Origin: a phage
Reading direction: 5' to 3' (one strand)
Sequence record: PZ179884.1
Length of the DNA stretch: 44,035 nt
Position numbers and translations under genes: made by a program. The notes under the pieces were generated by a model. The model did no database searches. It saw nothing but the letters and a program-made list of their open reading frames with translations, and had not been told where the DNA came from. This document shows, piece by piece, positions 1,067 to 44,035 of this stretch (positions within the stretch are counted from its first letter, which is position 1; every line of letters begins with the position of its first letter).

Positions 1067-1340
1067 ACTATTTATTTACCTATTCCAGTTATTCCACTCA
1101 ATTGTAAATGTTGGAATAAACTATTCGAATAGTTGACTTTTCACTGAAAATATGCTAAGCTCCACCTGAGCTTGTGAAGTATGAACAAGCGACCGCGGCG
1201 CGGGCAGGTAACGGAGCGGGACGTAAGTCCTGAGTGTAGTTACGCTGACGCGTTCGGAAGGGCCATACTCTATTGCTTGTGTAAAAAGTAACTGGTTTAC
1301 TGAGATTACGCCGTTTCTATGTTTAAATGATAAGGACTAG

Positions 1341-1368
1341 CGCCCCGCTTTAAGGCGGGGCTTTACTT
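1341..1368 (+). terminator. Terminator-like hairpin in the leader upstream of the spanin genes
   Basis: Stem GCCCCGC / GCGGGGC, 6-nt loop, followed by TTTACTT; lies just before the RBS of the 1386 gene, so may act as an attenuator. Confidence 0.4.
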
Positions 1369-1385
1369 ATCGAGAAAGGAGAAAC

Positions 1386-31967: not shown

Positions 31968-32258
31968 TTACCGTTTAGCCAACCCTTCCAGCAAATTTTT
32001 ATACTCTTCAAAATATTCCTCGACCAAATCATCGCCGAAATAGAAGTCGATATACTCGAGATTATCTCTTACGTTAAGCGATGCCGACATGGTGCTTAGT
32101 TGGCGTAAGCTAATTAGCTTCATTTCTGTTTCTACGCAGAAAGGCCGGTAGGTATCAAGATGGCAAGAGATATTGAAGCATAAAGCGAACTCTCCGGCCA
32201 CGGAGTGAACCATATACACTTCGTTTTCTGCTTTATTGTGGAAAATTACGCCTTTCAT
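31968..32258 (-). CDS. Hypothetical protein (96 aa)
   Basis: ORF track. Confidence 0.4.
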   Translation of the reverse strand: MKGVIFHNKAENEVYMVHSVAGEFALCFNISCHLDTYRPFCVETEMKLISLRQLSTMSASLNVRDNLEYIDFYFGDDLVEEYFEEYKNLLEGLAKR

Positions 32259-32437
32259 TTCACGTTCTCCTTAATCCATGCTTCGACTTTATTACGGTCA
32301 AATGTTCCCGGTAAACGGCGGCCCATAACCTTAATACAGCAGTCAGGGAATTTGCCGCTGCGCAACCAGTTATTAATGGTCTGACGTGTCACCCCGATAC
32401 GTTCAGCTACTTCATTCTGCGTCATATAATGCGACAT
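32255..32437 (-). CDS. AlpA/Xis-like HTH regulator (61 aa)
   Basis: Start at ATG 32437 with AGGAGA RBS (track ORF runs to 32551); pattern IGVTRQTINNWLRSGKFP...VEAWI. Confidence 0.55.
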   Translation of the reverse strand: MSHYMTQNEVAERIGVTRQTINNWLRSGKFPDCCIKVMGRRLPGTFDRNKVEAWIKENVK

Positions 32438-32468
32438 TTTTATATCTCCTGTTTGTTTGGTGAAACTG

Positions 32469-32497
32469 AGTATAGGATAGCGGGAATGTAAAAGCAA
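32469..32497 (-). promoter_or_regulatory. Leftward early promoter (minus strand: TTGCTT -17- TATACT)
   Basis: Hexamers with 17-nt spacer upstream of the AlpA-like gene. Confidence 0.45.
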
Positions 32498-32534
32498 CCA
32501 ATCTCTGTAATATTTAATCTTTACAAAAATGTTA

Positions 32535-32564
32535 TTGAAAGTTCTTGACACATGTTTGTATAAT
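32535..32564 (+). promoter_or_regulatory. Rightward promoter TTGAAA -18- TATAAT
   Basis: Consensus -10 preceded by TG; AT-rich upstream region. Confidence 0.5.
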
Positions 32565-32591
32565 GGTTTTGGGACTTGTATATATTACGGA

Positions 32592-32623
32592 GTTGACGAA
32601 CCCTCCCCGAGGGATTCGTCAAC
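32592..32623. promoter_or_regulatory. Long imperfect palindrome GTTGACGAACCCTC-CCC-GAGGG-A-TTCGTCAAC
   Basis: 9-bp outer and 5-bp inner inverted repeats in the divergent early control region. Confidence 0.5.
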
Positions 32624-32763
32624 CCCTCCCAGACAGCTGAGATGCTTGCCTTGGGGTTTAAGGATAAGTGTATCTAAATCTCATTTAAAGAAGTAACCCG
32701 CTGAAATATCTACTGTTTCTTAATGTGCCGTAGATTCGCAACCGTAAAAATGTAACGATTATT

Positions 32764-32790
32764 GGGCAGGCTTAAGCCTGCCCTTTAGTT
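32764..32790 (+). terminator. Rho-independent terminator
   Basis: Stem GGGCAGGC / GCCTGCCC, loop TTAA, followed by TTTAGTT. Confidence 0.6.
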
Positions 32791-32855
32791 ACCAAGTAAT
32801 AAGAATAAAGGCACAACCCTCCCCGAAGAATCACAACGGCAACGTAACTATTCTC

Positions 32856-32884
32856 TTGCACACCCCAATATAATAGGATACTAT
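32856..32884 (+). promoter_or_regulatory. Class B promoter (TTGCAC -17- TACTAT) for the early-right operon
   Basis: Spacer ACCCCAATATAATAGGA; downstream TCACTTATCGAAACGAG leader motif. Confidence 0.6.
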
Positions 32885-32918
32885 TCACTTATCGAAACGA
32901 GACAGAGGAGTGGTGGTT

Positions 32919-33110
32919 ATGTTTAAGAAGGGTCAGTTGATTAAAACGATGTACGGTAGCTTAGGTATTATTGAAAAGAAATCGGCAGTGTACCGAAGTT
33001 CTTATGTCGTTAGCTTACTCAGGGAGCACGGGTTAAGTTCCGCGGCGTATTACCAAGAGTATGAAATGAAACTAATTGGCAACAATTTTAAATTCAAAGG
33101 GGTGAAGTGA
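32919..33110 (+). CDS. Early protein (63 aa)
   Basis: ATG 32919 with GAGGAG RBS (track start 32910 is GTG). Confidence 0.5.
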   Translation: MFKKGQLIKTMYGSLGIIEKKSAVYRSSYVVSLLREHGLSSAAYYQEYEMKLIGNNFKFKGVK

Positions 33111-37247: not shown

Positions 37248-37276
37248 TTGACACCTAAGACTAATCCGACGATACT
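37248..37276 (+). promoter_or_regulatory. Promoter TTGACA -17- GATACT
   Basis: Consensus -35; 17-nt spacer; -10 matches TATAAT at 4 of 6 positions. Confidence 0.45.
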
Positions 37277-37282
37277 TAAATC

Positions 37283-37347
37283 ACCTCCTGCTCCATCTCT
37301 CTTCTCTCCAGTTTTATCCCGGCCCTGACCCAGCCGGGATTTTTTTT
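37283..37347 (+). ncRNA. Candidate ~65-nt small RNA with CU-rich body and intrinsic terminator
   Basis: No ORF; body ACCTCCTGCTCCATCTCTCTTCTCTCC; contains CACCTCCT identical to the 16S rRNA 3' end motif. Confidence 0.35.
37317..37347 (+). terminator. Strong rho-independent terminator
   Basis: Stem TCCCGGC / GCCGGGA with 9-nt loop, followed by T8. Confidence 0.75.
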
Positions 37348-37369
37348 ATCTATTTTCTGCAATGACTAG

Positions 37370-37398
37370 TTGACTATTACCATCGACCCTATTATATT
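37370..37398 (+). promoter_or_regulatory. Promoter TTGACT -17- TATATT for the operon starting at 37433
   Basis: Hexamers with 17-nt spacer; downstream leader CATCGACAACGAG resembles class B leaders. Confidence 0.5.
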
Positions 37399-37432
37399 TA
37401 CTCCATCGACAACGAGAACGGGGTAGAGAGAA

Positions 37433-37621
37433 ATGATGGCTAAGATTAAGCATACCGATAACTGGGGTGATTTCATGGAGATAGAGAAATGCCGTGACGG
37501 GACATTACTTATAACTTGTACAGACGGAGATACCGACGAATCAGTTAGTGTTAACGTGAGTATGGATGATTTTATGATTATTGTTGAGCAAGCGGCGGCT
37601 TTTTACGGAGATGATAAATGA
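37433..37621 (+). CDS. Hypothetical protein (62 aa), acidic
   Basis: ORF track. Confidence 0.45.
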   Translation: MMAKIKHTDNWGDFMEIEKCRDGTLLITCTDGDTDESVSVNVSMDDFMIIVEQAAAFYGDDK

Positions 37622-37767
37622 AAATCACAGATATCGAAGCATTCAAAGACGCACAACTGATGGCGCGCATCGCCGTTAGTAACCTGAGCAACAGCATTCC
37701 AGCGGACGCGTTCTGGTTCGCTGCGATGCAGACACTTAAAGCAGCTTATGCAGGAGATAAGAAATGA
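37618..37767 (+). CDS. Hypothetical protein (49 aa), not in ORF track
   Basis: ATGA coupling at both ends. Confidence 0.35.
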   Translation: MKITDIEAFKDAQLMARIAVSNLSNSIPADAFWFAAMQTLKAAYAGDKK

Positions 37768-37961
37768 AAGTTAAAGCCGCTAAAATTCTCTGGTTAGCCG
37801 CCCTTGACTATGTCACAGAGGGTAAAGTGTATGATGTATACAACCCGACAGCTACTGGTTTCGGTTATATAGACTCCGACGACGACTGCCATATTTTCAT
37901 AGACTTTGGTAACGATGACGGTGATGGTTTCCACGGCGTTAAATGGGAGGTTGTAGAATGA
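37764..37961 (+). CDS. Hypothetical protein (65 aa)
   Basis: ORF track. Confidence 0.45.
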   Translation: MKVKAAKILWLAALDYVTEGKVYDVYNPTATGFGYIDSDDDCHIFIDFGNDDGDGFHGVKWEVVE

Positions 37962-38119
37962 GCGAACAAGGTCAAGTAAGCCAACCATTACGAGTAGGCC
38001 GTAAGGTGAGTCACACCCCGTTCCCGACACGCGAGGAACTGATGAAACGTAACAGTTTCCCTGGGCCGGACAAGAACAAGTATCTCAACCGCATGTGGGG
38101 AGAGCGTAAAAATGACTGA
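37958..38119 (+). CDS. Hypothetical protein (53 aa), not in ORF track
   Basis: ATGA coupling; translated by hand. Confidence 0.3.
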   Translation: MSEQGQVSQPLRVGRKVSHTPFPTREELMKRNSFPGPDKNKYLNRMWGERKND

Positions 38120-38297
38120 CCGTGAATATGAAAAGATGATGGTAGAGGCCGTTAACGGCGGCGTAGACATTAGCCACGTGATGTGCGTCCTGAATAATAA
38201 AATCGCGGTAGCCGAGCAAATGGTGGAGTCGCTTTATGAGACGCGCCGCGAACTGATTAACTGCTTCAACCTGAACAAAGGTGACACCAATGCCTAA
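38112..38297 (+). CDS. Hypothetical protein (61 aa)
   Basis: ORF track. Confidence 0.45.
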   Translation: MTDREYEKMMVEAVNGGVDISHVMCVLNNKIAVAEQMVESLYETRRELINCFNLNKGDTNA

Positions 38298-38589
38298 AAT
38301 CACAATTGCATCGCTCGAGCGCCGTATTATGGTGCTTGAGTCGGAGAAACAGACGTTAGGCGGGCAACTGTCAATTAACGGTGAGTTTCAACTGGAGGCG
38401 TATAAAGAACTTCTAGAGGCGTTTAAAGAGCTACAAGCCATCGCGTCTGACATAGAAAATATGATTGGATTGTTGCAATCCGGGGAGTGGGCCGAACACT
38501 GCACTAAATCGGCGTTAGGAAAACGGCTTGAGACGGAGATTACTGACATGCTGAGTTGTCTTGTTGAGGCGCCAGATGAGCACGCCTGA
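38290..38589 (+). CDS. Hypothetical coiled-coil protein (99 aa)
   Basis: ATG 38290 in frame with track ORF 38281-38589. Confidence 0.45.
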   Translation: MPKITIASLERRIMVLESEKQTLGGQLSINGEFQLEAYKELLEAFKELQAIASDIENMIGLLQSGEWAEHCTKSALGKRLETEITDMLSCLVEAPDEHA

Positions 38590-43908: not shown

Positions 43909-44035
43909 ATGGGCTTTTTCAAAGTAACTGATGTACCGTCACGTCGCGTAGTCCAGTACGCCCGCGTGTCTGGCTCCGGTGAGAACGTGGTATTTATCGA
44001 GGATGAAAGTGTACTCGGCACGCCAGTAGACGATA
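43909..44035 (+). CDS. 5' part of the Ig-like head protein gene (same gene as 1-459; duplicate copy)
   Basis: Identical to 1-127; ATG follows the stop of the head morphogenesis gene. Confidence 0.6.
   Translation, partial: MGFFKVTDVPSRRVVQYARVSGSGENVVFIEDESVLGTPVDD

Follow-up and report, generated by a model that had tools for sequence, protein, structure and literature searches.

Sequence record PZ179884.1 holds a complete phage genome of 44,035 bases (the whole of this stretch is called the window here). In its main early control region, a gap of 481 base pairs (bp) separates a leftward gene for an AlpA-like helix-turn-helix protein (32255-32437) from the first rightward gene (ATG at 32919). 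Positions 32535-32790 of this gap are interpreted as a non-coding early transcription unit, which may serve the rightward early operon in cis as a leader or an attenuator; this interpretation is preferred, tentatively and at a little less than even confidence. The first-pass annotation had offered, for the same span, an origin-associated transcript, a regulatory RNA, or an operator for the AlpA-like or Cro-like regulators. The features that it listed are all present at the coordinates given. Among the three functions, a regulatory or non-coding RNA fits best, and an operator is not supported. As a phage control element the unit is of a familiar kind; what is less ordinary is that non-homologous cassettes are swapped at one slot, and that one type of cassette represents an undescribed, covarying family of leader RNAs.

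The study region is 100% identical to that of the Escherichia phages VerenaMeyer_Bas76 and vB_EcoS_XY2 (Kagunavirus, Guernseyvirinae). According to the BASEL paper, study of these phage groups at the molecular level hardly exists, and gene regulation in the Guernseyvirinae is essentially unstudied (PMC11990801). No usable transcript maps for the region were found in the literature searched; an RNA-seq study of the Kagunavirus vB_Eco_K1B4, which carries the same type of cassette as the window at 97.6% identity (OQ696342, 19162-19626; PMC12645636), gives gene-level counts and classes only and places the helix-turn-helix gene in the early class. The record of phage fBC-Eco01 already annotates a predicted host promoter, a terminator and a 'phage promoter' here, without interpretation.

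An exchangeable slot between the early operons

A BLAST search with the gap finds 388 phage records that match part of it, and only 21 that match all of it. With the gap extracted from 51 distinct loci, in related E. coli and Salmonella phages, it has been possible to see what is kept and what is exchanged. The layout is kept in all relatives examined: a promoter, 200-300 nucleotides (nt) of non-coding sequence with a long hairpin, a GC hairpin, and then a promoter of a recurrent motif, here termed class B. The 5' part, including the rightward promoter PR and the palindrome described below, is replaced by other sequence in other phages. These 5' parts fall into four types, A (the type in the window), B, C and D, between which no homology is detectable, and the 3' parts also fall into four, alpha (in the window), beta, gamma and delta. 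The combinations seen are A-alpha, B-alpha, B-beta, B-delta, C-beta, C-gamma and D-beta, which indicates independent assortment of the 5' and 3' halves; at their junction is a short shared sequence of the form AAGTNNCTGAT. Conservation in relatives, on which the first-pass annotation had hung its proposal, therefore has two answers: about 390 records retain the layout and the 3' block, and the sequence of the palindrome is not conserved. Among the forms that fill this conserved slot, the one with the palindrome is young and confined to one lineage.

PR and the hairpin both lie within the exchangeable block, cassette A, which occupies 32502-32700 on the plus strand. Its edges, set by alignment with cassette-C and cassette-B phages, lie just past the -35 element of the leftward promoter PL on the left and at the start of the shared alpha block on the right. 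It is present in only 21 GenBank records, all of Kagunavirus, with at least 95.7% identity and always at this locus; two metagenome contigs match it exactly, and a search of 5,426 E. coli genomes gave no match. When the window was searched with an nhmmer profile of the 3' half of cassette B, cassette A was not matched, and an alignment of A with B that had been made by eye was dropped because this profile did not support it. A covariance model of cassette C likewise has no match in the B and D loci. At the level of sequence, the cassettes are analogues, not detectable homologues.

PR, the rightward early promoter of cassette A (32535-32564, plus strand), consists of TTGAAA (32535-40), an 18-nt spacer and TATAAT (32559-64). 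It agrees with the sigma-70 consensus at 11 of 12 positions and has the top score in both scans that cover it (the scans took in parts of the window). Since the promoter-like hits in the scanned regions total no more than in shuffled sequence, this score proves nothing by itself, and it is conservation that supports the promoter. No position of its 30 bp varies among seven cassette-A phages, and each cassette type (over the 51 loci) has a sigma-70 match at the equivalent place, 275-335 nt upstream of the shared ACAACGGCAACGTAAC. The rightward promoter proposed in the first-pass annotation is thus well founded, and transcription from it would be predicted to start near G32571.

The predicted PR transcript, from 32571 to the hairpin at 32764-32790, is about 217 nt long and begins with a 5' hairpin domain (32571-32630, plus strand). 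At the core of this domain is a palindrome at 32592-32623, which corresponds to +22 to +53 of the predicted transcript and is extended by GG/CC and GGGA/UCCC pairs. The outer arms of the palindrome, GTTGACGAA (32592-32600) and TTCGTCAAC (32615-32623), pair over 9 bp and the inner arms, CCCTC (32601-05) and GAGGG (32609-13), over 5 bp, giving the 14-bp stem that had been noticed at first reading, with a bulged A32614 and a 3-nt loop (32606-08). The 71-nt 5' segment has a minimum free energy of -28.8 kcal/mol as compared with -15.7 +/- 2.6 for shuffles (z = -4.99; 0 of 200 shuffles as good), and the entire predicted RNA folds with z = -4.5, as does the opposite strand in like measure. The palindrome motif has a single site in the genome. 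(A repeat of AACCCTCCCCGA at 32815, considered as a third copy of the palindrome arm, was put down to coincidence, since it is not kept in other cassette-A phages.) Among the seven phages, 1 of the 38 positions of the palindrome varies, a C to T change in the loop at 32608. From PR to the terminator the variation is 11 of 256 positions (4.3%), as against 20% in the adjoining AlpA-like codons, where it has a period of three, and 14% in the PL region; this low variation suggests that the sequence of cassette A is under constraint. Known RNA families are not represented in the unit: a search of the whole window against Rfam at the gathering threshold gave no match (the best sub-threshold hits have 16-17 bits, E > 1), gathering and E-value thresholds alike gave nothing at the early locus or at the late locus discussed below, and a scan for tRNA and tmRNA found none.

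At the 3' end of the unit is a terminator-like hairpin, t-alpha (32764-32790, plus strand; found by scan), which has the form GGGCAGGC-TTAA-GCCTGCCC (32764-83) followed by TTTAGTT. Its stem has 8 bp, 7 of them GC, and its loop 4 nt; the tail is interrupted, with 3 contiguous T. The intrinsic terminator reported at this place thus has a GC-rich stem and a short loop, with a T-run that is interrupted. Copies of t-alpha in Jerseyvirus have GGGCAGGT...ACCTGCCC, a compensatory change from C-G to U-A, and the sequence is one at which transcription may terminate. The hairpin is part of the alpha block (32701-32855, plus strand), which comprises the conserved 3' part of the slot and the sequence upstream of the class B promoter, as delimited by comparison with relatives. 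This block is 83-95% identical in Kagunavirus and Salmonella Jerseyvirus, and includes a near-invariant stretch at 32727-32761, GCCGTAGATTCGCAACCGTAAAAATGTAACGATTA; most Salmonella phage records annotate nothing there. When compared with phage Ent1, its identity is 83%, with typical coding regions at 67-80%.

The unit has no coding capacity. The longest open reading frames (ORFs) inside the predicted transcript have 15-16 amino acids, start with TTG and lack a Shine-Dalgarno sequence, in agreement with the earlier statement that only tiny ORFs without ribosome-binding sites are present. Two minus-strand ORFs with TTG or GTG starts, at 32521-32622 (overlapping PR and the palindrome) and 32772-32888 (overlapping the terminator and the class B promoter), are annotated as hypothetical proteins in Bas76 and many other records. 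Phage Bas72, however, has a 2-nt TA insertion that shifts the frame of both ORFs spanning the palindrome, i.e. the 33-residue minus-strand frame, which is the Bas76 hypothetical protein, and a 55-residue plus-strand frame that starts upstream of PR. This insertion argues against coding, and the other cassettes have no equivalent ORF. The two annotated proteins are probably over-annotation, not genes.

Structured RNA in the sister cassettes and at the late operon

In all cassettes a long stable hairpin follows soon after the predicted transcription start, and in cassettes B and C its pairing has been kept by compensatory changes. Cassette B has a hairpin of about 100 nt. The outer helix of this hairpin, AGUUAC/GUAACU, does not vary; the helices that come next differ in sequence between Kagunavirus and Jerseyvirus while pairing is kept (one pair runs G-C, A-U, U-A), and five variants have wholly unlike apical stems. 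No asymmetry in stability between plus and minus strands is seen in this cassette.

For cassette C a structural model of the leader, R1, comprises a hairpin I, a basal helix (CCG.GGNGC / GCNUUCGG) around a long hairpin II, and AAGGGCC. Across 33 distinct sequences, 96.2% of cells are paired and 18 of the 28 pairs have compensatory double changes; 0 of 500 shuffles are as good and slid controls are 29-40% paired, although the alignment used for these figures was guided by the model and fitted to it, which favours the structure. Covariation in the basal helix (U-A, C-G and A-U at one pair) is visible already in a plain MAFFT alignment, and a sequence-only procedure, MAFFT followed by RNAalifold, recovers just this helix. 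In each of 18 sequences the plus strand is more stable than the minus strand, by 9.3 kcal/mol on average, and 15% of the pairs are G-U. Such a bias points to an RNA transcribed in the promoter's own sense, as opposed to a DNA cruciform, and indicates that strand-specific RNA structure has been selected for in this cassette.

The window contains one copy of cassette C, away from the early slot. This second unit, at the late locus (1134-1385, plus strand), is made up of a promoter, TTGACT-17-TAAGCT (1134-62), a structured RNA (1166-1275), a GC hairpin with TTTACTT (1342-68) and the ribosome-binding site of a spanin gene; R1 matches the window only at 1166-1275 (136 bits, E = 6e-33). Twenty bases past the hairpin come the ribosome-binding site and ATG (1386) of the Rz-like spanin, with the scaffold and major head genes after it. 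Because there is no promoter between the cassette-C RNA and the spanin gene, the RNA is a 5' leader at this locus, and a role as cis leader is thereby demonstrated, by anatomy, for at least one type of cassette. The late unit is found in every related contig recovered by pattern search, in Kagunavirus and Jerseyvirus, with compensatory differences between the two genera. Moreover, many Kagunaviruses have a near-copy of the late leader in the early slot, where the window has cassette A. Cassette C, which lacks an Rfam match, is a candidate for a new family of cis-regulatory RNA at the head of the late operon.

At the early slot, the unit may operate as follows. Host RNA polymerase with sigma-70 would start at PR near 32571 and make about 217 nt of RNA; its first 60 nt would fold into the stable hairpin, and its end would lie at the GC hairpin and UUUAGUU. 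The 5' hairpin may control a step at the level of RNA: it may affect how stable the PR transcript is or how it is processed, or whether the polymerase pauses or reads through the terminator; t-alpha would then set the share of PR transcription that joins the transcripts of the class B promoter, 66 nt downstream. The A-D cassettes would be exchanged by recombination at the short shared junction sequences. The AlpA-like protein, the XRE-like protein and the helicase-primase do not co-vary with the cassette, which fits an element that is read by host machinery. In keeping with a cis role, several sites that resemble intrinsic terminators occur in the downstream operons, and the annotation of Bas76 includes no antiterminator protein.

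The arrangement can be compared with two known phage systems. In the PR'-6S RNA-tR' system of lambda, which depends on Q, there is also a constitutive sigma-70 promoter, a non-coding RNA of about 200 nt and an intrinsic terminator just upstream of an operon, and the copy at 1134-1385 of the window precedes lysis and head genes as PR' does. Unlike in lambda, no Q-like protein is annotated, the genes at the early locus have a promoter of their own, and no conserved -10-like pause element is seen across the cassettes. The early leader of T7 has strong host promoters, several hundred nt of untranslated RNA and a long imperfect hairpin (the RNase III site R0.3) before the first early gene; hairpins of this RNase III family recur in the T7 genome with their structure conserved and their sequence variable. 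The likeness lies in the promoter, the untranslated leader with a long hairpin, and the recurring, structure-conserved family. The difference is that there are two or three units per genome here, with hairpins that stand beside the promoter, not between genes.

Several observations weigh against a leader or attenuator at 32535-32790. No relationship of cassette A to B or C can be detected (the cassette-C covariance model has no match in the study region at E <= 10 with filters off), so a transfer of function to A is an argument by position only. The hairpin of cassette A (z = -5.0) is equally stable on either strand. The covariance analysis across relatives that had been suggested at first reading is positive for cassette C, but cassette A varies too little for a covariation test, and a recent horizontal sweep of cassette A could give the same low diversity as constraint. 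In the beta, gamma and delta 3' blocks no U-run follows directly on the GC hairpin, which means that termination is not conserved across the versions of the slot. Finally, at the early locus the first gene is always separated from the unit by a class B promoter, so that the genes can do without PR; a small RNA gene complete in itself would explain this equally well or better.

Alternative explanations

Such a gene would specify a stand-alone, trans-acting small RNA of about 217 nt, abundant early in infection, which would act on host or phage targets, e.g. by binding mRNAs or proteins or as a decoy against a host defence, and whose hypervariable hairpins would reflect diversifying selection. 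This explanation is possible, although we consider it unlikely. It would account for the unit having a strong promoter and a putative terminator of its own, with the downstream genes served separately by a class B promoter, for the swapping of non-homologous cassettes at one slot, and for the hypervariable apical hairpins; a second unit of promoter, short RNA, strong terminator and next promoter at 37248-37352 and the C-rich motifs of the cassettes (CCUCC-like in A and D, CCUUCC in B) also speak for it. On the other hand, complementarity to the rest of the phage genome does not exceed 10-11 nt (E > 1, the chance level for antisense targets), the U-tail (UUUAGUU) is short, the beta, gamma and delta blocks have no U-run directly beside the hairpin, Rfam has no matching family, and at the late operon the position of cassette C shows it to be a 5' leader. 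Phage small RNAs with their own promoter and terminator are known, e.g. lambda oop and P22 sar; each known example is antisense to a gene next to it. The unit resembles them as a compact set of promoter, RNA and terminator within a control region; in contrast, its RNA overlaps no credible gene and has no complementarity elsewhere in the phage genome.

It could also be that there is no specific RNA function, PR being simply the early rightward promoter and the next 200 nt a mosaic spacer with a chance palindrome, passed along as related phages recombine. That the cassettes are unrelated and yet interchangeable would be understandable if the slot tolerates almost any sequence, and cassette A is young and nearly clonal, so that its conservation may reflect recent spread. 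However, a mere spacer would not be expected to keep a strong promoter and a long stable hairpin in every cassette, to keep pairing by compensatory changes in cassettes B and C, or to be accompanied by an alpha block that is more conserved between genera than most coding sequence. We therefore regard a functionless spacer as improbable.

An origin of replication primed by transcription, in which transcription from PR through the AT-rich stretch at 32640-32760 would open the DNA or prime a T7-like replisome, is given a similarly low probability. The cumulative GC-skew minimum and the lowest G+C of the genome (41%) fall at 32-33 kb, but the skew is confounded by the switch in gene orientation at the same place. 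The gap adjoins the helicase-primase operon and lies between divergent transcription units, and the annotation includes a T7-like set of replication proteins (family A polymerase, Gp2.5-like single-stranded DNA-binding protein and helicase-primase). The T7 primary origin and the T4 origins oriF and oriG each have a promoter and an AT-rich stretch and lie beside replication genes, as here. Since an origin of this style needs no specific initiator, the absence of protein co-variation does not count against it. What does count is that no DnaA box is present in 32438-32920 (the genome-wide count is that of chance), that no convincing iteron family was identified, and that an origin predicts neither strand-specific RNA pairing nor a copy of cassette C before late genes; conserved RNA pairing such as that of the sister cassettes is not a feature of the T7 and T4 origins.

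A more far-reaching proposal would make the cassettes a factor-independent RNA device that reprograms the host polymerase, i.e. put-like processive antitermination in a virulent siphovirus, with the swapping of cassettes a matter of phage competition or host adaptation. This too appears improbable. As with HK022 put, structured RNA comes directly after early promoters, two copies per genome head long operons with terminators in them, there is no evident phage protein dedicated to the task, and cassette C has two adjacent stem-loops from about +3. HK022 putL, however, is about 72 nt long with two short stems (PMC9378689), and cassette A has one dominant hairpin and cassette C a second stem of about 65 nt. 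Comparison of the HK022 immunity region with the study region gave only chance matches of at most 10 nt, and membership of cassette A in the put family is not supported. Furthermore, four unrelated cassettes would each have to bind RNA polymerase. That four unrelated cassettes do one job points instead to a generic property, a stable promoter-proximal hairpin, and not to a polymerase-binding fold, and this lowers the probability of a put-like mechanism.

Least probable by far is that the AlpA-like or XRE-like regulator binds the palindrome as a DNA operator and forms a roadblock there, downstream of PR. The inverted repeat is nearly perfect, with two promoters close by and a helix-turn-helix gene beside it, but the AlpA-like protein is 98% identical between cassette A and C phages, the XRE-like protein is 92-100% identical across B, C and D, cassettes without the palindrome, and the N-terminal 300 residues of the helicase-primase are 98-99.7% identical across A and C phages, so that none of the three proteins tracks the cassette as it should if the palindrome were its cognate site. 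The palindrome moreover stands at a single site in the genome, and the one that recurs at promoters in this genome is different, AATAG-N4-CTATT.

Flanking features and significance

To the left of cassette A, the early promoter PL (32469-32497, minus strand; TTGCTT-17-TATACT, read from the sequence) serves the operon that begins with the AlpA-like gene and goes on into the helicase-primase gene. Although it scores under the threshold of the promoter scan, the bases of its -10 element (AGTATA on the plus strand) and -35 element are invariant across cassette types in the alignment, which upholds the leftward promoter of the first-pass annotation. To the right, the class B promoter (32856-32884, plus strand; TTGCAC-17-TACTAT) serves the first rightward gene. 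Class B is a genuine repeated motif: the window has four copies of it, and each is followed after 25-32 nt by a ribosome-binding site and start codon. The alternative of reading it as a leftward promoter (TCGATA-17-TATATT) was dropped, because the four copies keep this fixed spacing in the opposite orientation. The motif fits the PHIRE 'phage promoter' consensus reported for fBC-Eco01; the fBC-Eco01 paper assigns it to a phage RNA polymerase, and no such polymerase is listed in the annotated relatives Bas76 and Ent1.

The class B promoter at the early locus contains the palindrome AATAG-N4-CTATT (32872-32885). The general form of this palindrome, (G)AATAG-N3/4-CTATT, is found at 1036, 9841, 26351, 29244, 32872-32885 and 33894, and overlaps the spacer and -10 element of two classes of promoter, a strong leftward class (TTGACA-17-TATAGT) and the weaker class B (TTGCAC-17-TACTAT). 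A palindrome common to both classes suggests a single phage regulator. Directly upstream of the -35 element of the late-leader promoter is a perfect palindrome, ACTATTCGAATAGT (1120-1133), in which the (G)AATAG/CTATT half-sites have the opposite arrangement; Jerseyvirus has GAATACTTTATTC in that place, and the palindrome could be an activator site.

The short-RNA unit at 37248-37352 (plus strand) has a promoter, TTGACA-17-GATACT, a CU-rich unstructured RNA of about 65 nt, and a hairpin with eight U, and is followed at once by the next promoter (37370-37398). Its RNA contains AUCACCUCCU, which equals the anti-Shine-Dalgarno end of 16S rRNA, and the stretch is 78% identical to Ent1.

Some features concern the 3' half of the slot in relatives and the ends of sequence records. 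In Jerseyvirus the gap is up to 1 kb long and unannotated (37359-38359 in Ent1, locus L008; 919-1565 in locus L005). Two 3' blocks stand in it one after the other: first alpha, which has a class B-like promoter, and then delta, which has a second promoter of class B. In the gamma block there is a run of (CTCA)n whose copy number differs between locus L078 and loci L075 and L077. The GenBank records of the Salmonella phages celemicas, dunkel and templet start less than 50 nt apart inside the alpha block (at the equivalents of 32697-32745), just upstream of its hairpin. These clustered starts, for which the literature searched offers no explanation, could reflect a break in assembly at the hairpin or a called packaging end. 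In the window itself the two ends carry an exact 127-bp duplication (1-127 and 43909-44035), most simply explained as overlap from the assembly of a circular or circularly permuted genome.

The Guernseyvirinae comprise hundreds of sequenced phages of E. coli and Salmonella, with uses in therapy and biocontrol and as chassis for synthetic biology. In these phages the main early control region is built of interchangeable non-coding cassettes, at least one type of which is a well-supported structured RNA absent from Rfam. A practical consequence is that the two 'hypothetical proteins' annotated here in many records are probably not genes. If the cassettes control elongation or the fate of the RNA, they would constitute a switch that sets early and late expression in the subfamily, and phage engineers would have in them a natural collection of orthogonal parts.

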